Shown: positions 4,038 to 61,607 of the stretch, in pieces | Layout of the letters: the number at the start of each line of letters is the position of its first letter | How positions within the stretch are numbered: position 1 is the first letter of the stretch | Sequence record: DRR378314_656 | Length of the DNA stretch: 64,000 nt | Reading direction: 5' to 3' (one strand) | Notes under the pieces: model-generated | Database searches by the model: none | Told to the model about the DNA's origin: nothing | The model's input: only the letters and a program-made list of their open reading frames with translations | Position numbers and translations under genes: made by a program

Positions 4038-4062
4038 GGTGCGTTTCCTCCAACGTCGGGGA

Positions 4063-5019
4063 TCAGGAATAATCTGCCTCAACCGGGCTGTCAATCTCCC
4101 TATACAAGGCAAGAATAACCCTCAAACGGTCTTCCGGTTCGGGTGAAGGAATGCGCGGCCAGAAGGGAAATTGGCGACCAATCCACGTGAATTGGCGCTT
4201 TGCGTAGCGTCTTGTGTCGCGTTTGGCGTTTTCTGCGGCAAATTCTGCCGTTATCTCTCCGCGCGCAAAGGCGGCCAGCCACGGCATTCCATGTGCTTTC
4301 ATTGCAGGAAGTTCGGGATCGAGATCGCGTTTTATGAGCTGGCGGGCCTCTTCCATCGCCCCTTGCATCAGCATGCCTTCAAAGCGGCGATCGATCTTCT
4401 GATAGAGTTTTGCCCGAGGTGGGGTGAGCGCAAAGCCGATCCATTCGCCATCCTTCAGGACCGGCGGCTGGCGGTTCTTCTGGAAATCGGTGATCGGCTT
4501 GCCGGTGGCCAGATAGACCTCATAGGCGCGGGCAAGCCGCTGGCGGTCTCCCGTGCCGAGCCGCGCAGCTGTTTCCGGGTCCACGGGGGTGAGGCGGTCG
4601 CGCAGGCCTTCTGCCCCCTCGGCATCTGCGATAGCCCGGACATCCGCGCGCACATCTTCCGGCACGGGCGGAATGTTGGACAGGCCCTGCGTCATGGCCA
4701 GCAGGTAGAGTCCAGTGCCGCCGACAAGGATGGCGCGCTTGCCCCTCAGTTCCAGGTTGCGGATTGTGGCGCGCACCTCTTCCAGCCAGTCGCCGGTGGA
4801 ATAACGATGCGCTGCATCGACATGACCGAACAAATGGTGAGGCACACCGTCCATCTCTTCCTCGGTTGGGCGGGCCGAGATCACTTGCAGGTCCCGGTAG
4901 ACCTGCATCGAGTCTGCGTTGACCACTTCGCCGCCCAGGCGACGTGCAACATCTATGGCGAGCGCGGTTTTTCCGCTGGCTGTTGGCCCGTGAATAAGGA
5001 TGGCTGGTGTCATCTTCAT
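4063..5019 (-). CDS. miaA: tRNA dimethylallyltransferase
   Basis: GPTASGKT, NADSMQVY, VGGTGLY, TRRYAKRQFTW. Confidence 0.96.
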   Translation of the reverse strand: MKMTPAILIHGPTASGKTALAIDVARRLGGEVVNADSMQVYRDLQVISARPTEEEMDGVPHHLFGHVDAAHRYSTGDWLEEVRATIRNLELRGKRAILVGGTGLYLLAMTQGLSNIPPVPEDVRADVRAIADAEGAEGLRDRLTPVDPETAARLGTGDRQRLARAYEVYLATGKPITDFQKNRQPPVLKDGEWIGFALTPPRAKLYQKIDRRFEGMLMQGAMEEARQLIKRDLDPELPAMKAHGMPWLAAFARGEITAEFAAENAKRDTRRYAKRQFTWIGRQFPFWPRIPSPEPEDRLRVILALYREIDSPVEADYS

Positions 5020-5066: not shown

Positions 5067-5987
5067 ATGAACGAGAAAGCAGTGAATTCGATGATCCTTG
5101 TTGCCGCCGCAAATGCCCCTGAGGACAATATCGCCTCGCGTCTCAGCATGATCTTGCGCGACATTGCACCCGCAACCCGCGTGGAGGCGATCACAAGTCT
5201 TGGCCAGATGGGAGATGTTGCGGCCGTCGAGGCCATTATACCCACTCTGCCGTCAGAAATGCTTCAGCCTGTGCTCTCAGCATTGCATGACGCCGAGATG
5301 GACGCAGCGTTCTTGCCTGGCGAAAACCGGCGCAAGCGCCTGCTGATTTCGGACATGGATTCCACGATCATTGGCCAGGAATGCCTGGACGAACTGGCAG
5401 ACTTCGCCGGTCTGAAAGCCGAAGTGTCGGCGATCACCGAGCGCGCGATGCGTGGAGAGCTGGACTTCGAAGGCGCCCTGACGACCCGTGTTGCGATGCT
5501 CAAGGGGCTGGACCTCAAAGCGCTGCAGGATGCTTATGATGCGCGCATCACGCTGAATACGGGCGCGAAGACGCTGGTTGAGACGATGAAGGCGAACGGC
5601 GCTGTCACGGTGCTGGTGTCTGGCGGGTTCACTTTCTTCACTGGCCGCGTGGCGGAAGAGGCGGGCTTTGTCGCCCATCGCGGCAACACGCTGATTGATG
5701 ACGGCGCCGCCCTGACAGGGGAGGTTGGCCTGCCAATCCTTGGCCGTGAGGCGAAGCTGTCGGCGCTGGACGAAGTGTCAGCCGAGAACGGGCTTGGCCG
5801 CGCGGATGCGATTGCGCTGGGCGATGGCGCCAATGATCTTGCCATGATCAAGGCAGCGGGACTGGGTATTGCCTACAAGGCCAAGCCCATTGTTGCGGCG
5901 GAGGCGCACGCCGCCATCACGCACACAGATTTGCACACGGCCCTGTTCTTCCAAGGCTATCATGTTGATGAGTTCGTAACCGGCTGA
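5067..5987 (+). CDS. serB: Phosphoserine phosphatase
   Basis: HAD motifs DMDSTII, VSGGF, GDGANDL; start may be 5091. Confidence 0.93.
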   Translation: MNEKAVNSMILVAAANAPEDNIASRLSMILRDIAPATRVEAITSLGQMGDVAAVEAIIPTLPSEMLQPVLSALHDAEMDAAFLPGENRRKRLLISDMDSTIIGQECLDELADFAGLKAEVSAITERAMRGELDFEGALTTRVAMLKGLDLKALQDAYDARITLNTGAKTLVETMKANGAVTVLVSGGFTFFTGRVAEEAGFVAHRGNTLIDDGAALTGEVGLPILGREAKLSALDEVSAENGLGRADAIALGDGANDLAMIKAAGLGIAYKAKPIVAAEAHAAITHTDLHTALFFQGYHVDEFVTG

Positions 5988-18408: not shown

Positions 18409-19950
18409 GTGAAAACCGGGCGTTTCGAGACACTCTTCAATCGCTTCGCGCGCGATGTGCATGGCAATCTGACCATGCTGACGGCGTTCATCCTGACGTC
18501 GTTGATGGTGCTTGTCGGACTGGCAGTCGACCTGGAATTCATTTTTCGCCAGAAAGCCCGCGTGCAATATGCGATGGATTCTGCCGTCCTCGCAGGCGCT
18601 CTTTCCCGTCAGGCGGGCGCAACAAATGCAGAAGTCGTCTCCGATATACGGCAATATGTGTCGCCCCTGATCGACTCGGCAGGGGGTGGAATGAGTTGTA
18701 CGACCGTTTCGGTCACATTCAGCGATGACAGCGAAGACATTCTCGGCCGCATGAGGTGTACTCAGCCGACCTTCCTGTCGAACCTGATCGGGAATGACGA
18801 TATGAGCTTCACCGTCAGCTCAACCTCGACTTTCTCGGTAGGGCGGATCGACGTGTCTTTCGTGTTCGACGTGTCAGGGTCGATGAACAGCAACAATCGG
18901 CTGTCATCTCTGAAGACCGCCGCGATCACGGCGTTCGACGAGTTGCTGCCCGACGATCAGGTAAGAGACGGAACGGTTCGTCTCGGCATCGTCACCTACA
19001 ACAATGCAGTCAATGCGGGGGCCTATTTTGACAAGGTCACCCGCGGCGTGACCATTCCGGCTGACGCCACGAACAGCGGGGGCACCAGCAACTACAATTC
19101 CTATAACAGTGCCCGAATGTACGATCAGGCGACGGGCAAGCGTTTCATGTATTATCAGGACGGAACCTGCACAGAGTCCGATCCTGACGAGTGTGACCAG
19201 CATGGTGACTATGATTGGGATGTGGCGCGCTGGTTCTGGGAAGATTCAACAGCGAGAGACACCTGCGTTTACGAGCGCACCGGAACCTATGCAGACAGCG
19301 ACGCGGCTCCGGGCAGTTTCGCCTGGATTGGGGCGGGCAATCCACGCTGGAACTTCTATGATAGCGACCGCGACAAGTATCGCGGCGAAAACGAGATCGA
19401 GAATGGCGGTGCGAACAGCTCGACCGGCGCGCTGGATTTCTACTACGCCACGTGCCGGGAGTCCGGACCCGTTCCTCTCACGGAAGACAAGGACGCGTTG
19501 AAGGCACATGTTCAGGCCATGACAGCAAATGGCGGCACGGCGGGTCATCTGGGTGTGGCCTGGGGCTGGTATCTGTTGTCGCCGAATTGGCAAAGCGTGT
19601 GGCCGGAAGTTTCAAAACCGTGGGATTATGACGAAGTGAATGTCACCAAGGCGGTCATCCTGATGACGGATGGTGACTTCAACGTGAACCATCCGACTGC
19701 CAGCAAGAATTCGTTCCGCCAGGCGATGGACCTCTGTGATGCGATGAAAGCGGAGCCCGCAAATGTGCAGGTATACACGGTTGGGTTTCAGGTGCCGTCC
19801 TATGTCCAGAAGACATCCGATGGGCGCACGATCATGGAGTATTGCGCGACCAGCCCATCCTTCGCCTTTGATGCCTCGAACGGGGAGGAGCTGAAGGATG
19901 TGTATCGGGAAATTGCTCAGTCGATCTCCGATCTCCGGATCAAGAACTAG
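18409..19950 (+). CDS. TadG/TadE-like pilus-associated protein with vWA domain
   Basis: Prepilin-like N-terminus (RFARDVHGNLTML), GLAVD, DSAVLAGA, MIDAS-like FDVSGSM, LMTDG. Confidence 0.8.
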   Translation: MKTGRFETLFNRFARDVHGNLTMLTAFILTSLMVLVGLAVDLEFIFRQKARVQYAMDSAVLAGALSRQAGATNAEVVSDIRQYVSPLIDSAGGGMSCTTVSVTFSDDSEDILGRMRCTQPTFLSNLIGNDDMSFTVSSTSTFSVGRIDVSFVFDVSGSMNSNNRLSSLKTAAITAFDELLPDDQVRDGTVRLGIVTYNNAVNAGAYFDKVTRGVTIPADATNSGGTSNYNSYNSARMYDQATGKRFMYYQDGTCTESDPDECDQHGDYDWDVARWFWEDSTARDTCVYERTGTYADSDAAPGSFAWIGAGNPRWNFYDSDRDKYRGENEIENGGANSSTGALDFYYATCRESGPVPLTEDKDALKAHVQAMTANGGTAGHLGVAWGWYLLSPNWQSVWPEVSKPWDYDEVNVTKAVILMTDGDFNVNHPTASKNSFRQAMDLCDAMKAEPANVQVYTVGFQVPSYVQKTSDGRTIMEYCATSPSFAFDASNGEELKDVYREIAQSISDLRIKN

Positions 19951-21059
19951 GCGTCACTCACCGCCTGGCCGTCCTCGACGCGCACCTTCTGCGCGCGGTC
20001 GCCAAAGGCTTCGAAGAGGAAGGCTTCCGTGCCAGTCAGCCAGGCCTGACCGCCAAGAGCGGACAATTCATCAAACAGCGCCGCCCGCCGGTCTGCATCG
20101 AGATGCGCCGCTGCTTCGTCGAGCAGGAGCAGGGGAGATGGCCCGGTACCATCCGCGCGAAGCGCTGAGGCCGAGGCGAGGATCAGGCCGATCAGCAACG
20201 CCTTTTGTTGCCCGGTCGACGCATCCTTCGCGGGCGCACCTGTCGGACGGTGGATCACGGTCAGGTCGGACCGGTGTGGGCCATCGATTGTTCTACCGGC
20301 GGCGATGTCGCGGCGACGGGTTGTGCGGAATGTATCGATCAGCGCTTCGAAAATGGATTTGAAATCCTCGCCGCGCAGGGCCGCTTCTTCAGTCTTGCCC
20401 TCAAGGGCGAGGTCAGCCTTCGGGAAATAGCCTTCAGGCCGAGCATTGATGGCGTCTTGCAGCGCTTCGAGAACGTGCGCCCGGTTGATAGCCATTTCGG
20501 CGCCGGCTTCGGCCATACGCGCCTCGATGGCATCAGCCCAGGCCGGGTCCACATGGCCCCGTTCGAGCAGGGCGTTGCGCTCACGCATCGCCTTTTCATA
20601 CCGGCTGGCGGCGGTGCCATGTGTCGGCATATGCGCCATGACCTGCCGATCAAAGAAGCGGCGTCGGTCTGACGTGCTACCCCGGAACACTCCGTCCATC
20701 GCCGGGGTCAGCCAGACGATGCGGACAAGTTCTGCGAGATCTGAAGCCGTGGCGGATGCGCCGTCGATACGAACAGTACGCTTCGTACTTGGGCTGAGCT
20801 CAAGGCCAACGCCGATGCGCTGCTCGTCCGCCAGCATCGCCGAAACTGTCCACCCTGCTGGCGCATCCTTGCGGACCATGTCCTGCAGGGTAGCCGAGCG
20901 CAGGCCGCGACCGGGGCCGAGCTGGCTGACGGCTTCAAGCAGATTGGTCTTGCCTGCGCCGTTCGCGCCATACAGGCAAACATGACGCCCATCCAGCGGC
21001 AGGCTGAGCGACGCATAATTGCGAAAGTCAGTCAGGGTCAGGCGGGTGAGGGCGGTCAT
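19947..21059 (-). CDS. recF: DNA replication/repair protein RecF
   Basis: FRNY, GANGAGKTNLLEA, GPHRSDL, STGQQK, LLLDE. Confidence 0.96.
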   Translation of the reverse strand: MTALTRLTLTDFRNYASLSLPLDGRHVCLYGANGAGKTNLLEAVSQLGPGRGLRSATLQDMVRKDAPAGWTVSAMLADEQRIGVGLELSPSTKRTVRIDGASATASDLAELVRIVWLTPAMDGVFRGSTSDRRRFFDRQVMAHMPTHGTAASRYEKAMRERNALLERGHVDPAWADAIEARMAEAGAEMAINRAHVLEALQDAINARPEGYFPKADLALEGKTEEAALRGEDFKSIFEALIDTFRTTRRRDIAAGRTIDGPHRSDLTVIHRPTGAPAKDASTGQQKALLIGLILASASALRADGTGPSPLLLLDEAAAHLDADRRAALFDELSALGGQAWLTGTEAFLFEAFGDRAQKVRVEDGQAVSDA

Positions 21060-21128
21060 TCAGGCTGTATGGCGTGGCCGGGTGTCAGGAGTCGAGACCG
21101 GCGTGCCGCCGGAAACGCCGTTGTTCCT

Positions 21129-22250
21129 TTAGACGCGCAGCGGCATCAGAACGTAGCGCGCGCTGTCATCGGACGGGTCCAGCACGAGGGCAGGCGATGC
21201 CGGATCGCTGAACATGAATTCCGCTTCGACCGCTTCGATCTGACCCGCAATATCGAGCAGGTACTTCGCGTTGAAGCCGATCTCCATTGCGTCCGAACCA
21301 TATTCTGCTTCGAGCTCTTCATTGCCGACGCCGGTTTCGGCATGGTTCACCGCGAGGACCAGCTTGCCATCAGACAGAGACATCTTCACGGACCGCGAGC
21401 GCTCTGCCGATACGGTGGACACGCGGTCCACTGCCGCTTCGAAGGCCTTGTTGTCGATGGTCAGCTTCTTGTCGTTCCCTTTCGGGATCACGCGGCTGTA
21501 GTCAGGGAAGGAGCCATCGATGAGTTTTGAGGTCAGCACCGCGCGACCGGCGCGCACGACGATCTTCGTGTCGGACACTTCCACATCGATGTCGTCCTCG
21601 ACCCCATCTACCAGGCGGCGCGCTTCCGCGATCGCCTTGCGGGGCACGATGATGCCTTCCAGGTTTTCAGATCCGGCCGGGGCAGGCAGCTCAGCCAGCG
21701 CGAGGCGGTGACCATCTGTGGCAACGGTTCGCAGCACGGCGCTGCCATCATCGGTTTTGGCGCCATGCAGGTACACGCCATTCAGATAGTAGCGGGTCTC
21801 TTCGGTGGAGATCGCGAAACGTGTCTTGTCGATCAGACGCGCAAACTCCTTGGCGCCGAGCGAGAATTTCGTCGGCGTGTCGTCAGAGCTCATTGTCTGA
21901 AAGTCTGAGGCGGGCAGGGTTGGCAATTCGAAGTGAGACCGGCCCGCCGTGATGGCGAGGCGCTGGCCTTCAGGCTGGACTTCCAGCTCGACTTCGGAAC
22001 CTGCAGGCAGCTTGCGCACGACATCGAACAGCGTTCCGGCCGGGGCGGTCACGGCACCTTCGCGCGACACGCTTGCATCGGCGCTGTCGACGGCTTCGAT
22101 ATCGAGATCGGTCGCGGTGAGCTTCAACTCTCCATTGCCTGCCTGGAGCAGTACGTTTGAGAGGATCGGGATCGTGTTGCGGCGCTCCACCACATTCTGC
22201 ACATGAGACAGTGCGTTCAGCAGGTCGCCGCGTTCAATCGTCAGTTTCAT
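21129..22250 (-). CDS. dnaN: DNA polymerase III beta sliding clamp
   Basis: VERRNTIPILSN, ATDLD, ETRYYLNG, ATDGHRLA, YVLMPLRV. Confidence 0.97.
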   Translation of the reverse strand: MKLTIERGDLLNALSHVQNVVERRNTIPILSNVLLQAGNGELKLTATDLDIEAVDSADASVSREGAVTAPAGTLFDVVRKLPAGSEVELEVQPEGQRLAITAGRSHFELPTLPASDFQTMSSDDTPTKFSLGAKEFARLIDKTRFAISTEETRYYLNGVYLHGAKTDDGSAVLRTVATDGHRLALAELPAPAGSENLEGIIVPRKAIAEARRLVDGVEDDIDVEVSDTKIVVRAGRAVLTSKLIDGSFPDYSRVIPKGNDKKLTIDNKAFEAAVDRVSTVSAERSRSVKMSLSDGKLVLAVNHAETGVGNEELEAEYGSDAMEIGFNAKYLLDIAGQIEAVEAEFMFSDPASPALVLDPSDDSARYVLMPLRV

Positions 22251-22441
22251 CGTCCGTTCCGTTCGTGGCAGGCCGCCAGAAGCGGCCCTGAATTCTTCAT
22301 ACTTGCTCCCGGCTCCGCCCGGAACAGCCATCCGGAACGGAATCGGCCCGCTCTGCAGGGAGAGCGGGCCGAGCACACTTACTCAAACAGGGGCAAAAGC
22401 CAAGCGCTGATCATGTTTTCAGCGTGATTGGCCTCACCTGC

Positions 22442-23917
22442 CTAGTTCATACCCGCTGCCTGCAGCTCGAGGATCGCTTCGCTGACGGCTTTGATGTGGG
22501 CCTTGAGCTCGACATTGTCCTTCAGGGCCTTGGTCACCTTGCGGTGCGCATAAAGGATGGTTGTGTGATCGCGCTTGCCGAAGCTGTAGCCGATCTGTGG
22601 GAAGGATTTCCCGGTCATCTCGCGGCACAGATACATGGCGATCTGGCGTGGGTACACTACAGCGCGCGCCTTGCTCGGGCTTTCCATGTCAGTCTTGCTC
22701 ACGTCGAAGACTTTCATCGTCGCCTTCTTGACCAGCTCGATAGACGGCTGGCGCACGTCGCCTTCTGTCCGGCGCACGATCTTGCGAACCATGTCCAGCG
22801 TAGGCGTGCGGATACCGAAGGCTGCCTCTGTGTAGAGGTTCCAGATCGCGCCGGTCATTTCACGGGCCTGACCGCGGATGCCGGCATTGAACTCGGCGAT
22901 CATCTCGTCTGTGACAACAAAGTTCGGATGGCCTGACTGAATATGGTCAGCAAGGTCGCGCATGATCTGGTAGCGCATGTTTGCGTCCGGCTCGCCAACC
23001 TCGACGGTGGTCGCGCCTTTCAGCTCACTGATCATGCGGGGGCTGAACCCGGTGACGTCACCAGGGGCCTTGTCACCCGCCAGAACGACATGGCCGCCAT
23101 TCGCGGTGACCTCACGGATGTTCTGGAACAGCTCCGTCTCTGTGCCCGGCTTGCCGCTGATGCGGTGCAGGTCGTCGATCATCAGGATGGTGGCGGCACG
23201 CAGACGCTTCTTCAGGGCGCTGGTGTCCTTCACCTTCACGCCGTCTGTGTAAGAGGAGAGAAATTCTTCCGCAGTGAGGTAGACGACATTGCACTCGCCA
23301 TCCCGCGCTTCAGCGGCAGATTTCAGCGCGTGAAGGATGTGCGTCTTGCCGGTGCCCTGCAGGCCATAGAACAAGGTTGTCAGCGTGCCGACTGGCAGGC
23401 CGGCCGCAATACGCTTCGCCATCTCGACGGCCAGCTCGTTTGCCTCACCCGTGACGAGGGTGCCAAACGACATGACAGGGGCGCCTGTGCTCGCAGTGGA
23501 GGTCTCGGTCTCTGCCTTTGGCGCTGTATCGGCGGCCGCCTCAGTCGTTGCCCAAGGATCGTCGACGATCTCCAGCAGTTCGGCAGGCGCAGTGCGCCAG
23601 CAGACCAGCTTGATCGCGCGGCGGGCCGGGTCATGCTCGCGCCAGATGCGCTGGATGGCATGGCGGTGGGCCCCATAGACGCGGTCGAATGACAGCGGAT
23701 CCCGCGCCGCAATGATCATCTCATTGTTGTACTCGGCAACCAGGCGCAGACCATCGATCCAGCGATCATAGTCAGCCGTGTTGAGGATGGTCGCGAGATG
23801 CGCCTTTACGGTCAGCCAGATCTCCTTGCCCGGAGCATTCTTGCCGCCCTGTTTTTTAGTGAAGTCTACGCCAGTTTCTGAATCAAAGAGTCTGTTCCCG
23901 TCCATGCCGAGCCCCAT
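22442..23917 (-). CDS. dnaA: Chromosomal replication initiator DnaA (divergent)
   Basis: Walker A GLQGTGKT, Walker B LMIDD, domain IV PRQIAMYL and KRDHTT; between rpsT and dnaN. Confidence 0.88.
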   Translation of the reverse strand: MGLGMDGNRLFDSETGVDFTKKQGGKNAPGKEIWLTVKAHLATILNTADYDRWIDGLRLVAEYNNEMIIAARDPLSFDRVYGAHRHAIQRIWREHDPARRAIKLVCWRTAPAELLEIVDDPWATTEAAADTAPKAETETSTASTGAPVMSFGTLVTGEANELAVEMAKRIAAGLPVGTLTTLFYGLQGTGKTHILHALKSAAEARDGECNVVYLTAEEFLSSYTDGVKVKDTSALKKRLRAATILMIDDLHRISGKPGTETELFQNIREVTANGGHVVLAGDKAPGDVTGFSPRMISELKGATTVEVGEPDANMRYQIMRDLADHIQSGHPNFVVTDEMIAEFNAGIRGQAREMTGAIWNLYTEAAFGIRTPTLDMVRKIVRRTEGDVRQPSIELVKKATMKVFDVSKTDMESPSKARAVVYPRQIAMYLCREMTGKSFPQIGYSFGKRDHTTILYAHRKVTKALKDNVELKAHIKAVSEAILELQAAGMN

Positions 23918-24390
23918 TTTCTAGTTATATTTCACCCTGACCAACTGGCACGCAGTCCCCGCCCGAACCGTAGTCCGGTTACACATAAATACTCCGTGTC
24001 GGGAGAACTTTTCTGTTGGTGAATTCAAATTACTCAAAGGGGGTTTTGCTGACAAGTGCAACTTTTATGCGACAACAGGTTTTGCTCGCTTGACTCTTAA
24101 TCCTCTTCCTCAAATCGCAATCAAATCAGGCGTTTGAGAACTGATCTTTTTTTGTGAGTGAGTCGCTCCACACTTTTGTTCGCGCCTGTTCTGTCAACAG
24201 GGGGCGGGGCATAAGCCTGTGAAATTCCTCTGAATAAGTGCGAGTTTTTTTCTTCCTCTGACAAGCCCTAACATTACTGCAACTCGGACCCTCACAGTCA
24301 GGTCAATTTCGCAATCCTTACGAGAAACCTCCAAGTGCAATGAACTTGTTTTTTAGCGGGCTACATTTTGTTGTATTGAGTAGTTGACAT
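23880..24390. promoter_or_regulatory. AT-rich dnaA upstream regulatory region with GANTC (CcrM) sites
   Basis: GANTC at 23880, 23888, 24092 and 24160; visibly AT-richer than flanks. Confidence 0.5.
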
Positions 24391-24391
24391 G

Positions 24392-24423
24392 AAAAAAACC
24401 CGCCTGAGCAGTCAGGCGGGTTT
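24392..24423 (-). terminator. Intrinsic terminator after rpsT
   Basis: Minus strand AAACCCGCCTGA-CTGC-TCAGGCGGGTTTTTTT. Confidence 0.88.
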
Positions 24424-24449
24424 CAAATTTTTACGCAAGAAAGTGTCGC

Positions 24450-24713
24450 TTAGCCCATTGCCTTGACGCGGGCTGACAGGCGGGAAACTTTCCGGGCAGA
24501 TGTGTTCTTGTGCATCACGCCCTTGGTAACCGCGCGCATCAGTTCCGGCTGAGCAAAGCGCAGCGCTTCCTGAGCAGCAGACTTGTCGCCAGCCGCGATT
24601 GCTTCCTCAACCTTGCGGACAAAGGTGCGCACGCGTGAGCGGCGAGCTTTGTTCACTTCGGTGCGGCGCGCAATCTTGCGGACCATTTTCTTGGCAGAAC
24701 GAGTATTAGCCAT
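24450..24713 (-). CDS. rpsT: 30S ribosomal protein S20
   Basis: MANTRSAKK...[16 protein letters not shown]. Confidence 0.97.
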
Positions 24714-24842
24714 ATTAAACTCCTGTGGCCCGAAGGGCTCCCTTCAGGCTGAAGGCGGGGGAATACATAAACGGCGCCGGGGCGTCAACAGCCCAGATGG
24801 GCCCCGGCGCAGGAAAATGCAGGTATGATCGGGTGTCCTGCA

Positions 24843-31407: not shown

Positions 31408-31481
31408 GGCAAGTTTCTGGGAGGAAACGCTGCAAACGGTGGAAGGCGCGGAAGCTGGTGGAAGCTCTCCGCGCCTTTTTT
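31408..31481 (+). ncRNA. Candidate sRNA with GGGAGGAAACG motif and intrinsic terminator
   Basis: TTGACA at 31374-31379 with A/T-rich upstream tract; stem AAGGCGCGGA/TCCGCGCCTT plus T run ending 31481; 5' end approximate. Confidence 0.6.
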
Positions 31482-35463: not shown

Positions 35464-36612
35464 TTAGCGCCCCAGCCGCCGCCGGAACTCCTCATAGCCG
35501 AAATCGGACAGGCTCTCGATGATGCCGTCTTCCCAGCGCACCGCGAGGTTTGCCAGCGGCGTGCCGTTGAACGTGTTCGTCTTGACGAAGGAGTAATGCA
35601 TCTGGTCGGTGAAGATGATCGTGTCGCCGGGTTTCAGCGGGGCGTCGAAGGAATATTCTCCGATCACGTCACCCGTCATGCAGGTCTTGCCGCCGAAACG
35701 ATAAGTGTGTGCCTTCTGGCCGGGCTGGCCCGCGCCGATCACGTCTGGCCGGTAGGGCACTTCCAGCACGTCCGGCATATGGGTCGAGGCGGACGCGTCG
35801 AGGATTGCCAGATCGACTTCGTTCCAGTGCAGGGCGAGGACGGTGGCGTAAAGTTCACCCGTATTGACGACAAGGCCGGCGCCCGGCTCCAGAACAACCT
35901 CGACGCCAAAGCGCGCCTTAAACGCCTTGATGGCCGCAATCAGGGCGTCAACATCATAGCCATCCTTGTTGAGGAAGTGTCCTCCGCCGAAATTCACGGT
36001 ACTGACCTGTTCAATGTATTGCCCGAAATTGTCGGCCACGAATTCGATCAGTCCGACAGAGCCTTCGTGCAGGCTCTCGCACAGGGCGTGGACGTGGAAG
36101 ATGTCGATGCCGGACCAGTCAACCTGGTCCAGCTTTGAAGGCACTTCGCCGAACCGGCTTCCGGGCGCACACGGATTGTACAGGTCGCCGCCGAGCGTCG
36201 CATTGGAATAGCCGGGATTGACGCGTAGGCCGACTTTGGCGCCGGCATTGCGGGCAATGTCCGCGAACCGGTCCAACTGTTCGAGGGAGTTGAAATAGAT
36301 GTGCTCGGCCACTTCGGTCAGGCGTTCCACCTCGGCCTGCGTGTAGGCCGGCGAGTAGACATGCACTTCCTTGCCGAAGCTCTCATGCCCCATGATGGCT
36401 TCCTGCTCTCCGCTCGCCGTGGTGCCGTCCAGATAGTCGGTCATCATCGGGAAGGCGGCGGGCAGGGAGAACGCTTTCGTTGCCAGCAGGATCTTGCACC
36501 CGGCTTCCTCGCGCACACGTTTCGCCGTTTCCAGGTTCGCGCGCAGGCGCGCCGCGTCCAGCACGAAAACTGGCGTCGGAATATGCTCGGGAAGGGGGGC
36601 AGGTTGGGTCAT
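35464..36612 (-). CDS. nspC: Carboxy(nor)spermidine decarboxylase
   Basis: ILLATKAF, HVYSPAY, YNPCAPGSRFG, HMPDVLEVPY, CMTGDVIG, KTNTFNG. Confidence 0.92.
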   Translation of the reverse strand: MTQPAPLPEHIPTPVFVLDAARLRANLETAKRVREEAGCKILLATKAFSLPAAFPMMTDYLDGTTASGEQEAIMGHESFGKEVHVYSPAYTQAEVERLTEVAEHIYFNSLEQLDRFADIARNAGAKVGLRVNPGYSNATLGGDLYNPCAPGSRFGEVPSKLDQVDWSGIDIFHVHALCESLHEGSVGLIEFVADNFGQYIEQVSTVNFGGGHFLNKDGYDVDALIAAIKAFKARFGVEVVLEPGAGLVVNTGELYATVLALHWNEVDLAILDASASTHMPDVLEVPYRPDVIGAGQPGQKAHTYRFGGKTCMTGDVIGEYSFDAPLKPGDTIIFTDQMHYSFVKTNTFNGTPLANLAVRWEDGIIESLSDFGYEEFRRRLGR

Positions 36613-37506: not shown

Positions 37507-37946
37507 AACGCCTTCATATCCACGTCCGTGCGGCGGATCTCCTTGCCAGCAAGCAATTCTACACAGCGCTGTTTGGCGCGGCGCCCATCGTGTCAAAGCC
37601 TGACTATGTCAAATGGATGCTCGATGATCCGCGGATCAATTTCGCCGTCAGTTCAATGGAGGGCAATGCGCCCGGCATTGACCATCTTGGCATTCAGGTC
37701 GAAAGCGACGACGAACTCTCCGAGGTTAATGACAGCCTGCGCGCGGCGGAACAATCCACCGTGGCGGAGCCGGGTGCGCATTGTTGTTATGCGAATGGCA
37801 ACAAACACTGGGCACGTGACCCACAAGGTGTGGTCTGGGAAATGTTCCACACGATGGGCGCCGCCACGACATATGGCGACACACGGGTCGAGTTGGACGC
37901 GGCAGCGATGGATGCCGCGCCCAAATCAGATGCGTGCTGTGGCTAA
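37503..37946 (+). CDS. ArsI/CadI family VOC metalloenzyme
   Basis: RLHIHV, KWMLDDPRINFA, HLGIQV, CCYA, DPQGVVWE, C-terminal CC. Confidence 0.88.
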   Translation: MKRLHIHVRAADLLASKQFYTALFGAAPIVSKPDYVKWMLDDPRINFAVSSMEGNAPGIDHLGIQVESDDELSEVNDSLRAAEQSTVAEPGAHCCYANGNKHWARDPQGVVWEMFHTMGAATTYGDTRVELDAAAMDAAPKSDACCG

Positions 37947-39160
37947 GTCTCGACTGCGAACAGGTCTTCCTGGTCGCCGCCGTCCACATCAATGACGTGC
38001 CAGGGCAGGCCGCGCTGGGCGACATCTTCCAGGAAGGGCTTGGCCGGGAATTGTTCGACATTGAACACGCCGTGACCGCTCCATTCGCCACGGAAGAACA
38101 TGGCTGCGCCGGAAACCGGCGGCACACCCGTCGTGTACGATACCGCCTGCGCTGAGACCTCATCATTGGTCTTGGCGTGGTCGGAGACGTTGTAGATCAT
38201 CTTGGAGACCGGCTGGCCGTCTTTCGTGCCCCGCAGGATGACGCCGATCGACGTCTTGCCGGTATAGTTCTCGGCCAGCGAGGAAGGCGGCGGCAGCAAG
38301 TCCTTCAGGAATTCCATCGGGATGATGTCCATGCCCTTGTGCTTGATCGGCTCCAGACCGATCAGGCCGATGGATTTGAACACTTCAAGGTGCTTGATGT
38401 AGGCCTCGCCAAAGGTCATCCAGAAGCGGATCTGCTTCAGGCCCTTGATGTGCTTGACCAGGCTTTCCTCTTCCTCGTGATAGATCAGGTAAGAGGCTTT
38501 CGGGCCAACTTCCGGATAGTCGATCATCGTCTTGATCGACAGGGCAGGGATCTCGATCCACTCGCCATCTTTCCAGTATTTGCCGTCCTGCGTCACTTCG
38601 CGGAGATTGATCTCCGGATTGAAGTTGGTCGCAAACGTCTTGCCGTGGTCGCCGGCGTTGCAGTCCACAATGTCGATGAATTCGATCTCGTCGAACAGGC
38701 CTTCCTGCTGGGCATAGGCACAATAGATATTGGTCACGCCCGGATCGAACCCGCAGCCGAGGATGGCGGTCAGGCCAGCCTCCTTGAAACGGTCCTGATA
38801 GGCCCACTGCCAGGAGTATTCGAATTTGGCGACATCGCGCGGCTCATAGTTCGCGGTGTCCATGTAATTGCAGCCGGCTTCGAGACAGGCATCCATGATC
38901 GGCAGGTCCTGGTAAGGCAGGGCCATGTTGATCAGCAGGTCCGGCTTCACCTTGTTGATGAGCGCGACAACCTCTTCAACATTGTCGGCATCAACCTGGC
39001 TGATCTCGATCGGTGTCTGGCAGAGCTTGGCCACTTTCTCGCAGCTCTCGATACGGCGCGAGGCAAGATGGATGTGTTTGAACGTGTCGCGGTCCATCGC
39101 GCATTTCTGGGCGACGACGGATCCGGCGGCACCGGCACCGATGATGAGAACATTGTCCAT
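37943..39160 (-). CDS. Saccharopine dehydrogenase family / carboxy(nor)spermidine dehydrogenase
   Basis: IIGAGAAG, ALPYQDLPIMDAC, DTANYE, GCGFDPG, FATNFNPEINLRE; near nspC. Confidence 0.9.
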   Translation of the reverse strand: MDNVLIIGAGAAGSVVAQKCAMDRDTFKHIHLASRRIESCEKVAKLCQTPIEISQVDADNVEEVVALINKVKPDLLINMALPYQDLPIMDACLEAGCNYMDTANYEPRDVAKFEYSWQWAYQDRFKEAGLTAILGCGFDPGVTNIYCAYAQQEGLFDEIEFIDIVDCNAGDHGKTFATNFNPEINLREVTQDGKYWKDGEWIEIPALSIKTMIDYPEVGPKASYLIYHEEEESLVKHIKGLKQIRFWMTFGEAYIKHLEVFKSIGLIGLEPIKHKGMDIIPMEFLKDLLPPPSSLAENYTGKTSIGVILRGTKDGQPVSKMIYNVSDHAKTNDEVSAQAVSYTTGVPPVSGAAMFFRGEWSGHGVFNVEQFPAKPFLEDVAQRGLPWHVIDVDGGDQEDLFAVET

Positions 39161-39244
39161 GAGTGATGAGACTCCCTGTCTGGATGGGCACTGATCTGCC
39201 CGTCACATAGGGCAAACAGCGTGTGTTCGCCAGTACAGATCTGC

Positions 39245-39335
39245 GGGGAGCCGGGGGAGGGGAATGCCGCAGCGCAGGAGAGCGAAGGGGGGAGGAAACG
39301 AGGTGGGCAAACCTCGCCCCGCGCTGCGGCAAAGC
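39245..39335 (-). ncRNA. Candidate 3'-UTR structured RNA with CU-rich seed
   Basis: Stem GCCGCAGCGC/GCGCUGCGGC enclosing CGUUUCCUCCCCCC, followed by AUUCCCCUCCCCC; directly after small-ORF stop. Confidence 0.5.
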
Positions 39336-39339
39336 AGGA

Positions 39340-39531
39340 TCAGGCGGCTTGCCTGTGAACGTCGAGGCGAGAGATTTCCTCGCTGAGCCAGGTATAGTGC
39401 TGCTCAACGCGATTGATCATCGTGTCGGTTGTGTCCGGTCGCTCCGTTAACTCGTTCCGCCACGCTTCCAGCACGCTCTTCTGGCTTTTCAGCCAGCACA
39501 GCATGGCGGCATCATCGATCGGCAGGCACAT
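39340..39531 (-). CDS. Small hypothetical protein (63 aa; 67 aa if started at 39543)
   Basis: MCLPIDDAAMLCWLKSQ...HRQAA; GGAG 6 nt before ATG at 39531. Confidence 0.7.
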   Translation of the reverse strand: MCLPIDDAAMLCWLKSQKSVLEAWRNELTERPDTTDTMINRVEQHYTWLSEEISRLDVHRQAA

Positions 39532-39550
39532 GGGACGCTCCATCAGTTAT

Positions 39551-39611
39551 TTGCGAGTCGTTCTCAAAACTCTTGTTTCACACCTTGCGGCCTCTTGCAA
39601 GTCATTCTCAA
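39551..39611. promoter_or_regulatory. Two Fur-type boxes
   Basis: TTGCGAGTCGTTCTCAA (39551-39567) and TTGCAAGTCATTCTCAA (39595-39611); resemble the Caulobacter-type alphaproteobacterial Fur box as recalled. Confidence 0.72.
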
Positions 39612-39721
39612 TTAGATTTCGTCCATGTTTGAGGATTCAGGGTGAAATCCCCCGCCGTCACTGGAATAATTGTTCAAAACGGAGTATCTGGCCCGCTTTC
39701 CCGTTTCAGGAGTTTCTCTGA

Positions 39722-40660
39722 ATGACCTCATCCGCCACCCCGCGCCATTTCATTGACCTCTGGCATCTGGAATCCGCAGAATTGCGCGAAATCCTGGACA
39801 TGGCCCATGCGATGAAGAAGGCGCGACAAGGCTGGCCGAAGGGACGGGTCGACACGGGCGCCCCGCTGGAAGGGCACACGCTGGCGATGATTTTCGAGAA
39901 ATCATCGACGCGGACTCGCTTTTCCTTCGACATGGCCATGCGTCAGCTTGGCGGGTCGTCCATTACGGCGACATCCAACGACATGCAGCTTGGCCGCGGC
40001 GAAACCGTTGAGGACACAGCGCGTGTTCTGTCGCGTTTTGTCGACGCGGTGATGATCCGCGCCAATGATCATTCAGACGTTGAGGCCTTTGCCGAGAATG
40101 CCAGCGTACCTGTGATCAACGGCCTGACGGATCGGTCTCACCCCTGCCAGATCATGGCGGACCTGCAGACGCTGGAAGAGCATGGCCTGACCCTCAATGG
40201 CGCGCGCCTCGCATGGGTGGGTGACGGCAACAATGTTTGCGCCAGCTTCATTCATGCGGCGGCGAAGTTCGGGTTCTCACTGGCCGTTGGCACGCCGCCA
40301 CGCTTTGCGCCGGATGACGAGGATATCGAGATCGCCCGCGACCTGCAGGGGCGCATCGATTTGTACGACACGGCGGAAGAGGCTGTCGCTGGCGCGGATG
40401 TGGTGATTGCGGACACATTCGTGTCGATGGGTGACGCAGATGCCGAACGCCGTCTGGAAATCCTCGAGCCATATGCCGTGACCGAGGAGCTGATGGAGCT
40501 GGCTGCTGGCGGTGCGAAGTTCCTGCACTGCCTGCCCGCGCACCGGGGCGAGGAGGTCGACGCCGAAGTGATCGACGGGCCGCAAAGCCTTGTCTTTGAC
40601 GAAGCCGAAAACCGTATGCATGCCCAGAAAGCCGTGCTGCGCTGGTGCCTCGGCAAATAG
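39722..40660 (+). CDS. argF: Ornithine carbamoyltransferase
   Basis: [41 protein letters not shown]. Confidence 0.96.
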
Positions 40661-50366: not shown

Positions 50367-50382
50367 GGGCCGGCGGTTTGAA

Positions 50383-50573
50383 ATCGTATCGAGCGCCGTA
50401 TGGCGGCGCCGGGAGCAGCCTTCGCTTGCGCTTCAGGCCTTTTCTTCCAACATTCGATCCTCGATCGAATGATGACGCGAAGCGTCATCGGGGTGTAGCC
50501 CTTGCTTACGCTGCGGGCCTTTTTCCCCTCAACTCGATCCTCGATCGAATTGTCGCGCTTTGCGCGACCGGGG
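50383..50573 (-). repeat. 80-nt-period structured tandem repeat downstream of rnpB (about 2.4 copies)
   Basis: TCGATCCTCGATCGAAT at 50454 and 50534; GGCCTTTT at 50436 and 50516; hairpins in register. Confidence 0.85.
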
Positions 50574-50578
50574 AAAAA

Positions 50579-50970
50579 GACCAGACGGCCTGTAAGCCGG
50601 GTTCTGTTCGCCTGATTGCTCAGGTCTGGCAGCCATTCCTCTGGGATGCCTGTTGCCAGGCACCTCACGCGACACACCCGGGGCGCGGGCGGAAAACGGC
50701 CCATGCGCGCCCCCTATTCGGTCTTGCTCCGGGCGGGGTTTACCGTGCCGGTCCTGTCGCCAGTCCCGCGGTGGGCTCTTACCCCACCCTTTCACCCTTA
50801 CCGCGGCGTCCTTCGACAAGCTCAGGATGAGCCGCGGCGGTTTGCTTTCTGTGGCACTTTCCCTCGGCTCGCGCCGGGCGGCCATTAGCCGTCGCCCTGT
50901 TTCCCTGGAGCCCGGACTTTCCTCCAACAGGCCGTTACCAACCTGCCAGCGGCTGCCCGGCCGTCTGGTC
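50579..50970 (-). ncRNA. rnpB: RNase P RNA (type A)
   Basis: GAGGAAAGUCCGGGCUCC, AGUGCCACAGAAA, GGUAAACCCC, ACAGAACCCGGCUUA; P1 from CCAGACGGCC/GGCCGTCTGG. Confidence 0.97.
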
Positions 50971-60705: not shown

Positions 60706-61607
60706 CAGCTGCCTCCGGAGCCGAGCTTCTTGATAATGGCCGCGTCCGGCAGGGTCTTGTTCTGGCGGACTGCGATGACGAGCACACCGCTCAGCGAAAT
60801 GACCGATCCGAGCACCAGCCGGGCGGAAATCGGCTCGTTCAGCAGGATGATGCCGAAGACCACACCCCAAATTGGCGTCATCAGGGTCAATGGGGTCAGG
60901 AGGGAAATGTCGTACTTCTTGATGAGGGAATAGAACCCGCCATGCCCGAAGATCGACACGCCGACCACAGCGAACAGCCAAGCAAGCCCGAATTGCCAGC
61001 CGCCGCGCATAACGGATTCCAGCTGACCAGTCTCCAGCAGGCCGGACGTGATGAAGAGCGGTGCAAAGCTGAACAGGCCCACCCAAGCCTGCAGGCGAAG
61101 CGCCTTGATCGGGGGGAGCCGCTTCATCAGGATTCCGCCCACCGAGCCCACAAAGGCCGCAACGACGATGTAGATGAGGCCGATCGAGATTGAGAAACTG
61201 GACGGATCAAAGGCGATCAGCACGACGCCTGCAAAGGACAGCATGATGCCGAGCCCCCTGCGCCAGCCAATTTTTTCGCCAAGGAATGCCATGCTCATCA
61301 GGGTCGAGAAGGGCGCGCCGAGCTGTCCTGTGATGGACGCCGCGGACGCCTCTGCGCTCTGCAGGCCGATAAACAACAGGGAAAAATGCACCGCGCCGAT
61401 GAACATGGCGATGAGGAACAACATTTTCAGGTCTTCAGGCTTTGGCCGCAGGAACATGACCAGAAGCGCGGCGACGCCTGCAAAACGCGTGGCCGCAAAG
61501 AAGATGGGCGGCACGCCGACATCGGCGACGACCCAGCGTGTGAAGACGATATTTAGGCCCCAGACGAGGCAGACGGCAAAGAGAAGTACGAAATCGCGAA
61601 ATGACAT
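60705..61607 (-). CDS. DMT/EamA family transporter
   Basis: About 10 TM segments, VWGLN, LGEKIGWRR. Confidence 0.88.
   Translation of the reverse strand: MSFRDFVLLFAVCLVWGLNIVFTRWVVADVGVPPIFFAATRFAGVAALLVMFLRPKPEDLKMLFLIAMFIGAVHFSLLFIGLQSAEASAASITGQLGAPFSTLMSMAFLGEKIGWRRGLGIMLSFAGVVLIAFDPSSFSISIGLIYIVVAAFVGSVGGILMKRLPPIKALRLQAWVGLFSFAPLFITSGLLETGQLESVMRGGWQFGLAWLFAVVGVSIFGHGGFYSLIKKYDISLLTPLTLMTPIWGVVFGIILLNEPISARLVLGSVISLSGVLVIAVRQNKTLPDAAIIKKLGSGGS

Follow-up and report, generated by a model that had tools for sequence, protein, structure and literature searches.

Fur-repressed small RNAs (sRNAs) such as RyhB, PrrF, NrrF, FsrA, and IsrR are central to bacterial iron economy. [quoted passage not shown] Here we describe a short unit on the minus strand of a 64-kb window of Hyphomonas atlantica (sequence record DRR378314_656; the window is the whole stretch of DNA that was analyzed), in which a pair of Fur-type boxes precedes an open reading frame (ORF) for a 63-aa protein, and the stop codon of this ORF is followed by an RNA hairpin that exposes an anti-Shine-Dalgarno (anti-SD) word. 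When co-occurrence and covariation were checked across orthologous loci, the boxes, the ORF, and the hairpin were found together in 23 of 23, and the stem of the hairpin covaried around the anti-SD word; an earlier note made from the letters alone had proposed this check.

In architecture the unit resembles CcaF1-CcsR1-4 of Rhodobacter sphaeroides (the 'cuckoo' sRNAs), where the 3′ untranslated region (UTR) of a small protein gene yields anti-SD sRNAs (PMC8034643). To judge from the available text of that paper, both this system and NfeR/alpha-r14 of Sinorhizobium share with the Hyphomonas unit their alphaproteobacterial origin, 3′-UTR hairpins that show CCUCC-type anti-SD sequences, and a single promoter that is, or in Hyphomonas is predicted to be, stress regulated (PMC8034643). 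The differences are also clear. CcaF1 is a DUF1127 protein, whereas the Hyphomonas protein has no DUF1127 match; as described there, each CcsR RNA has two stem-loops, each with a CCUCCUCCC loop, and four such RNAs stand in tandem, whereas here one large hairpin carries a single UUUCCUCC(C); and the CcsR promoter depends on RpoHI/HII, whereas the Hyphomonas promoter carries Fur boxes. The alpha-r14 model of Rfam gave no match in the window region at E ≤ 10 or in seven orthologous loci at E ≤ 1.

In its proposed regulatory logic the unit resembles IsrR, FsrA, and RyhB. For IsrR of Staphylococcus, the accessible text of PMC9410917 describes two experimentally demonstrated Fur boxes, the first within the promoter and the second immediately past the transcription start site, and C-rich single-stranded regions that target SD sequences; the box layout is the same as that predicted for the Hyphomonas unit. 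Both IsrR and FsrA of Bacillus subtilis are, like our proposal, Fur-repressed riboregulators with single-stranded C-rich regions directed against SDs, but they are free-standing non-coding genes of Firmicutes with unrelated sequences, whereas in Hyphomonas the element forms the 3′ terminus of an mRNA that encodes a protein. FsrA has the helper proteins FbpA-C, which are basic, as their name says; the Hyphomonas protein is acidic and is no counterpart to them. RyhB, PrrF, and NrrF of the gamma- and betaproteobacteria share the proposed logic of repression by Fe-Fur, expression on starvation, and repression of other mRNAs. They have no similarity in sequence or structure to the Hyphomonas element, which comes from an mRNA 3′ end and gave no Rfam hit to them. 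In a related alphaproteobacterium, Caulobacter crescentus, RusT is, as proposed for the Hyphomonas element, an sRNA induced by iron starvation, but according to the available text it is intergenic, 118 nt long with four stem-loops and without an ORF, controlled by NtrYX rather than Fur, and confined to the Caulobacteraceae (PMC11005374). The Hyphomonas unit belongs to none of these systems.

Layout of the unit and its Fur-type boxes

The whole unit lies on the minus strand in the order box pair, SD, 63-aa ORF, 3′ hairpin, and C/U-rich tail. Its features, and the leader that bounds it, are as follows.

39595..39611, minus strand: distal Fur-alpha-type box TTGAGAATGACTTGCAA, 1 mismatch to TTGMGAANNNNTCKCAA
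39551..39567, minus strand: proximal Fur-alpha-type box TTGAGAACGACTCGCAA, 0 mismatches to TTGMGAANNNNTCKCAA, 9 nt upstream of the SD
39538..39541, minus strand: SD GGAG, 6 nt before the ATG at 39531
39340..39531, minus strand: coding sequence of the 63-aa acidic two-helix protein, stop codon TGA at 39342-39340
39266..39330, minus strand: 3′ hairpin with a 14-bp outer stem (arms 39330-39317 and 39279-39266), from minimum-free-energy folds and a covariance model
39316-39299, minus strand: inner hairpin within the outer stem, lineage specific
39291..39300, minus strand: loop word CGUUUCCUCC, anti-SD, at the start of a long unpaired tract
39253..39265, minus strand: C/U-rich tail AUUCCCCUCCCCC, at the position of the terminator U-run in other lineages
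39197..39232, minus strand: promoter-like leader of the carboxynorspermidine synthase gene, a boundary feature outside the unit

The 23 orthologous loci (L001-L023) were retrieved from species-representative genomes with a profile of the ORF's 13 relatives, and they cover Hyphomonas, Henriciella, and unclassified marine alphaproteobacterial metagenome-assembled genomes (MAGs). The protein of L001 (H. atlantica 22II1-22F38) is identical to that of the window. Outside the coding sequence, one base of the 5′ UTR differs between the two (window position ~39547), and the C-run right after the loop word is one C longer in the window (6 C at 39287-39292 versus 5 in the L001 contig at 3240-3245); these differences are either strain or assembly variation or, in the loop, homopolymer slippage.

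The two near-identical 17-bp palindromes are placed directly upstream of the ORF, where the earlier note had seen them, and its comparison of them to the Caulobacter-type Fur box was borne out. A pattern derived from published Caulobacter sites had three matches at ≤1 mismatch in the window versus 0.26 expected, a number reached by none of 100 shuffles, and four matches versus 4.99 expected at ≤2 mismatches, which is not above chance. The pattern made from the window's own boxes found only these two sites at ≤3 mismatches (0.51 expected; 9 of 100 shuffles reached two). Within the window alone, the chance evidence for boxes and hairpin is moderate; the finding goes beyond chance because it is conserved across the 23 orthologous loci, which is the strongest and decisive evidence.

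The box pair was present upstream of the unit in all 23 loci, directly at the ORF in 17 and before a heme-receptor gene in 6. In the 17 (L001-L015, L018, and L023), two boxes with a spacing of 40-44 bp lie no more than 100 nt from the ATG, and the distal box keeps the same place; a box with ≤1 mismatch occupies the proximal position in 20 of the 23 loci. The other six (L016, L017, and L019-L022) have no box near the ORF, and their pair, with a spacing of 49-51 bp, lies ∼2.2 kb upstream. The gene before the ORF in these six loci encodes a TonB-dependent heme/hemoglobin receptor (TIGR01785, 441-470 bits with a cut-off of 316.85), the stop codon of which is 10-11 nt before the ATG of the ORF and overlaps its AGGAG. 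The boxes keep to the front of the transcription unit in either arrangement, and we conclude that they belong to the promoter of the transcript that carries the small ORF. In Henriciella-type genomes, the unit closes a Fur-boxed heme-receptor operon, as its final cistron and 3′ end; the Hyphomonas version is free-standing, with a promoter of the same type. On the basis of this arrangement, the unit appears to be linked to heme acquisition. The heme-receptor gene is divergent from a DUF6607 gene in all six loci (positions 1-720). In L020 and L021, a further box at 4114 stands before a gene for a PiuC/YbiX-type Fe(II) dioxygenase and boxes at 5166 and 5198 before one for a siderophore receptor, and L016 has a box at 4109; together with the heme receptor, these make up a small iron island around the unit (∼4100-5230 in L016, L020, and L021).

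The identity of the regulator was considered with published sites for comparison. The Fur sites of C. crescentus are 19-mers, ATTGMGAA-N-TCKCAAT, that form a 9-1-9 palindrome, and several of those listed in Table 3 of PMC2724300 are only a few positions away from the window boxes. Rodionov et al. (PMC1698941) defined the Fur-alpha box for Caulobacter, Parvularcula, and Oceanicaulis; the main text, in its available part, makes no mention of Hyphomonas. As the same source relates, the Fur-alpha box resembles the Mur-responsive site, and the Irr ICE consensus TTTRGAAYNRTTCYAAA is similar to it as well (PMC1698941). Another Fur-family regulator (Mur, Zur, Irr, or PerR) could on these grounds act at the boxes, with manganese, zinc, heme, or peroxide as the signal, and the link to a heme receptor would fit a heme-responsive protein as well. 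Several observations make this improbable, however. The window boxes have G at position 3 and C at position 15, as do the Caulobacter Fur sites (TTGMGA...TCKCAA), whereas ICE has T and A; the same motif precedes the heme and siderophore receptor genes and the PiuC-type dioxygenase gene; and iron control is what Rodionov et al. assigned to the Fur-alpha box in all three of their genera (PMC1698941). Fur is therefore the best candidate regulator, and on the strength of motif and context we predict with considerable confidence that the unit is under Fur and iron control.

Read by eye, the distal box ends in a putative −35 element, its last six bases being TTGCAA (39600-39595), and the proximal box lies ∼10-30 nt before the SD, where it probably overlaps the transcription start or the early 5′ UTR.

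The small protein and the 3′ hairpin

The ORF list contained a 67-aa form of the protein that starts with the ATG at 39543. Twelve of the 13 related protein clusters and all of the loci begin at MC..., matching the ATG at 39531, and the GGAG is correctly spaced for that start, so the ORF was taken as 63 aa, the length given in the earlier note. A GGAG or GGAGG is found at the same place upstream in the orthologues. For the 17 ungapped 63-codon ORFs, the numbers of variable columns at codon positions 1, 2, and 3 were 38, 26, and 58 of 63, respectively, the corresponding pairwise differences were 1810, 1361, and 4142, and the other frames contained stops. The ORF is almost certainly protein-coding.

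An exhaustive profile search yielded 103 representatives at E ≤ 1e-3, 27 of them at E ≤ 1e-10. Nearly all are 41-133 aa in length, with three long outliers that are multi-stretch, coiled-coil-like matches, and every named member is a 'hypothetical protein' from Hyphomonas, Hyphococcus, Hyphomonadaceae, or unclassified marine MAGs. Residues W13, Q17, W48, and L49 are invariant; M1, L14, W24, H45, and L56 are nearly so; and Cys2 and Cys12 are conserved among close relatives. AlphaFold2 predicts a two-helix hairpin (helices 7-28 and 36-62) with a pLDDT of 90.3. Searches with the 63-aa protein found no Pfam family (the sole line was Sipho_Gp157, E 0.062, with 13.7 bits below the cut-off of 28.6) and zero NCBIfam families. 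A PDB sequence-profile search gave no useful match (best E 0.24), Foldseek found nothing in the PDB at E ≤ 0.001 (its best E was 1.1, with nothing but generic helical hairpins, Rop and ZraP among them), and the best ESM Atlas score of 0.88, to a 'hypothetical protein' cluster, was below the 0.9 level. Our literature search found no description of the family. We conclude that this is a cytoplasmic, acidic protein of an uncharacterized family.

HemP/HmuP are small cytoplasmic proteins of ∼60 aa that are encoded beside a TonB-dependent heme receptor gene under iron control. The Hyphomonas protein is similar in size, and in the six heme-receptor-type loci the orthologous gene adjoins a TonB-dependent heme receptor gene, but no hemP line appeared at E ≤ 0.1, the predicted structure is all helical, and in those loci the gene is downstream of the receptor gene. 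The protein has a coding signature and belongs to no Pfam or NCBIfam family, and thus the view that it is an orphan and not HemP stands. The earlier note's comparison to FsrA with its small Fbp proteins did not hold as an analogy to a Fur-regulated basic chaperone: the net charge is −4 for the window protein and negative in 37 of 43 family members (mean −3.2), and the acidity of the family argues against an Fbp-like basic RNA chaperone. From the heme-receptor operon and the conserved Cys, His, and Trp residues, one could speculate that the protein binds heme, a metal, or a partner.

The region 3′ to the ORF folded better than all 200 shuffled sequences (z = −3.30). The long GC stem enclosing an anti-SD word that the earlier note had placed after the stop codon was recovered 9 nt beyond the TGA, with CGUUUCCUCCCCCC inside, and a long GC stem follows the stop codon by 9-25 nt in every one of the 23 loci, irrespective of which gene lies downstream. 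A covariance model (R1), trained on 13 Hyphomonas rows with the outer stem as its only structure, located the hairpin after the ORF in the window and all 23 loci; in a search of 203,527 bases it found the element again in seven divergent loci that were neither part of the training set nor close to it (L016, L017, and L019-L023), with 22.0-26.7 bits and E values of 0.0046-0.043. To measure covariation, the 20 distinct forward sequences were aligned with MAFFT. Of the 260 stem cells, 95.8% form standard pairs; sliding the 3′ partner by 1-3 columns lowers this to 33.5-57.7%. Both sides have changed in 10 of the 14 stem pairs (27 cells), and none of 500 shuffles attained the observed score for pairing or covariation.

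The interior enclosed by this stem varies from 20 to 45 nt, and the 10-mer CGTTTCCTCC is its only unpaired stretch conserved at ≥90%. It is kept in 19 of the 20 distinct rows and unchanged in 18 (L010 is without one T), and it persists in lineages with a protein identity of only 51-54% and saturated third codon positions. Folding predicts no pairing for window bases 39298-39280, the CCUCC core was never paired in single-sequence folds, and in several lineages CGUUU/AAACG closes a small inner stem with a hexaloop that displays CCUCCC. We are highly confident that the hairpin is a genuine, conserved RNA structure and that its loop word is under selection, and Fur control together with a functional RNA element is, as a prediction, well supported. 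The Rfam searches described above assigned the hairpin to no family. The only other R1 match in the window, at 61461-61500 (19.4 bits, E 0.15), was rejected as a second copy of the element, for it has no loop word. In L017, a palindromic hairpin between genes (4680-4751) matched the microRNA model mir-1538 with 44.6 bits and an E value of 5.6e-06; the hairpin being bacterial, this family name is certainly spurious.

The sequence that follows the stem is less uniform. A T-run of ≥4 within 12 nt past the stem gives a terminator-like end in 8 of 23 loci, namely the six heme-receptor-type loci, L023, and L009. The second CU tract of the earlier note is present in the window at 39265-39253, but its conservation is limited to the closest relatives, L001 and, in part, L002-L005, and other lineages have a terminator U-run at this site. 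A carboxynorspermidine synthase gene is next on the same strand in 12 of the loci, and other, often convergent, genes occupy this position in 11. The window hairpin has no U-run, so read-through is plausible, and from this and the 12 loci one could view the hairpin as a leader that governs read-through into the norspermidine-synthesis genes and couples polyamines to iron. We consider such attenuation very improbable. The hairpin is kept in the 11 loci with different downstream genes, another gene sits between the hairpin and the polyamine gene in L009, and the polyamine gene is preceded by a conserved promoter-like element of its own, which lies downstream of the hairpin. The latter consists of TGGCG, 16 nt, and CCTATG (39232-39206), followed by a 6-bp hairpin (TTGCCC...GGGCAA), and it is conserved in L001-L008, L010, and L012-L014, the 12 loci with the carboxynorspermidine synthase gene downstream. 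Its spacing fits that given for Caulobacter sigma-70 promoters in the available text of PMC2724300, and it is probably the promoter or leader of the carboxynorspermidine synthase gene itself. In L011 and L015, which have a different gene downstream, only the first part of the leader (CACTGGCGAAGG) is retained.

A possible role in iron sparing

We propose that the unit is a short transcription unit of the Hyphomonadaceae Fur (iron) regulon. When iron is present, Fe-Fur bound to both boxes, one over the −35 element and the other at the transcript start, would block the promoter; iron starvation should switch the unit on, because the two Fur-alpha boxes cover that promoter, whereupon the unit would be transcribed and the small protein made. 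The 3′ stem would hold the UUUCCUCC(C) anti-SD word single-stranded, either in the ∼330-nt mRNA, acting as a dual-function RNA, or in a stable species released by processing, and the exposed word would pair with GGAGG-containing ribosome-binding sites (RBSs) of other, target mRNAs and lower their translation under iron scarcity. Taken as a whole, the proposal of a Fur-regulated unit whose 3′ element most likely represses other mRNAs has in our judgment an even chance of being right. That the element is a trans-acting RNA of the iron-sparing kind is suggested by analogy to the systems above, and we hold this as plausible, at somewhat short of even odds.

The main rival explanation keeps the Fur-regulated small-protein gene but dispenses with a trans-acting sRNA. 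The hairpin would be a terminator or 3′ stabilizer, and its loop would act on its own mRNA, for example by pairing with the ORF's GGAG(G) and so limiting translation, or as a binding site for the encoded protein or a different RNA-binding protein. The hairpin's position 9-25 nt past the stop codon and the T-runs of eight loci are consistent with such a cis-only role, as is the SD of the ORF itself, which is GGAG or GGAGG in all loci read. CcaF1, moreover, binds RNA from its own 3′ UTR, according to the available text of PMC8034643. A plain terminator, however, needs no interior of 20-45 nt with an invariant 10-mer; in the sequences read, the complementarity to the 5′ UTR of the ORF ends at the 4-5-nt SD core; and an acidic protein is atypical as an RNA binder. 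We regard a purely cis-acting hairpin as possible but rather unlikely.

Candidate partners of the loop word were sought in the window and the loci. In the window, loop-complementary sites numbered 8 versus 4.43 expected, and 9 of 100 shuffles reached 8; this absence of enrichment also favors the cis-only explanation. Two exact complements lie outside the hairpin, neither at an obvious RBS: one at 4042-4051 (minus strand), ∼150 nt upstream of the start of the acetolactate synthase large-subunit gene, and the other at 31420-31429 (plus strand), in the ∼390-nt gap between a hisG-like gene and argD, with no convincing small ORF after it. Within the loci, no conserved cis partner of the loop word was found at a fixed position, and the only recurring site belongs to a gene for an 84-aa YeaQ/GlsB-like membrane protein that is convergent and inserted after the hairpin in L009 (3272-3540), L011, L015, and L018. 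Nine nucleotides of the loop word are complementary to the RBS (GAGGAAACG, 4 nt, ATG) of this gene, whose mRNA is a possible target. The site represents a single evolutionary event, since it is confined to one clade, and it is also an SD-like word.

Several further observations, besides the lack of enrichment, weigh against the proposal that a Fur-controlled RNA acts in trans. The 5-nt CCUCC core pairs with almost any SD, which leaves specificity unexplained, and L023 is without the loop word, having TCCTCCTCC directly after its stop codon. A U-rich 3′ end is usual for Hfq-dependent sRNAs. The window and 14 other loci have a C/U-rich tail with no T-run, and thus most Hyphomonas units do not end in the style of an Hfq-dependent sRNA; a consensus scan found no canonical terminator in the window region. 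Nor did a consensus scan of the E. coli type find a sigma-70-type promoter on the minus strand, and the distal boxes of the six heme-receptor-type loci are degenerate, with 3-4 mismatches to the consensus. Finally, Caulobacter may have no need of an sRNA that depends on Fur, given that Fur activates genes directly there, as argued in the available text of PMC11005374.

The locus is a good candidate for the iron-sparing regulatory RNA that has not yet been found in this bacterial group. Its promoter and seed are defined, natural variation supplies 20 distinct sequences, and the candidate can be tested cheaply in culturable, non-pathogenic marine bacteria. The unit would provide a second, independent example of the combination of a small protein with a 3′-UTR anti-SD RNA, so far represented by CcaF1-CcsR only, and it adds an uncharacterized small-protein family to the iron/heme regulon. 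Iron is limiting in the ocean habitat, so a post-transcriptional layer of iron sparing would, if true, be ecologically relevant. A bolder version, which we offer as doubtful speculation, is that this would be the first Fur-controlled iron-sparing riboregulator of the RyhB type in the Alphaproteobacteria, derived from the 3′ end of the mRNA for a new small helical protein; it would have started out at the end of a heme-receptor operon and, in Hyphomonas, turned into a free-standing dual-function RNA, with protein and RNA jointly reprogramming the translation of iron-rich proteins in marine Hyphomonadaceae, as CcaF1 does with CcsR.

Neighboring genes and other features of the window

The neighbors of the unit are ordinary housekeeping genes, and no other iron-uptake genes are present in the window. 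The carboxynorspermidine synthase gene (37943-39160) and a decarboxylase gene (35464-36612) follow downstream on the same strand, and argF (39722-40660) is divergent. The sole sigma-70-like promoter match in the intergenic region, at 39642-39670 on the plus strand (GTGAAA, 17 nt, AATAAT, with an upstream TG), faces argF and is outside the boxes, and argF is therefore probably not controlled by them. The only Rfam family at gathering threshold in the window was class A RNase P RNA at 50577-50968 (minus strand, 306 bits); an ORF at 50378-50830 is spurious because it overlaps this RNA. The recF, dnaN, and dnaA genes are located together on the minus strand (19947-23917), ∼16 kb from the unit, with a gene-free stretch of ∼0.9 kb (23918-24842) upstream of dnaA, and the replication origin region of the chromosome may fall within the window.

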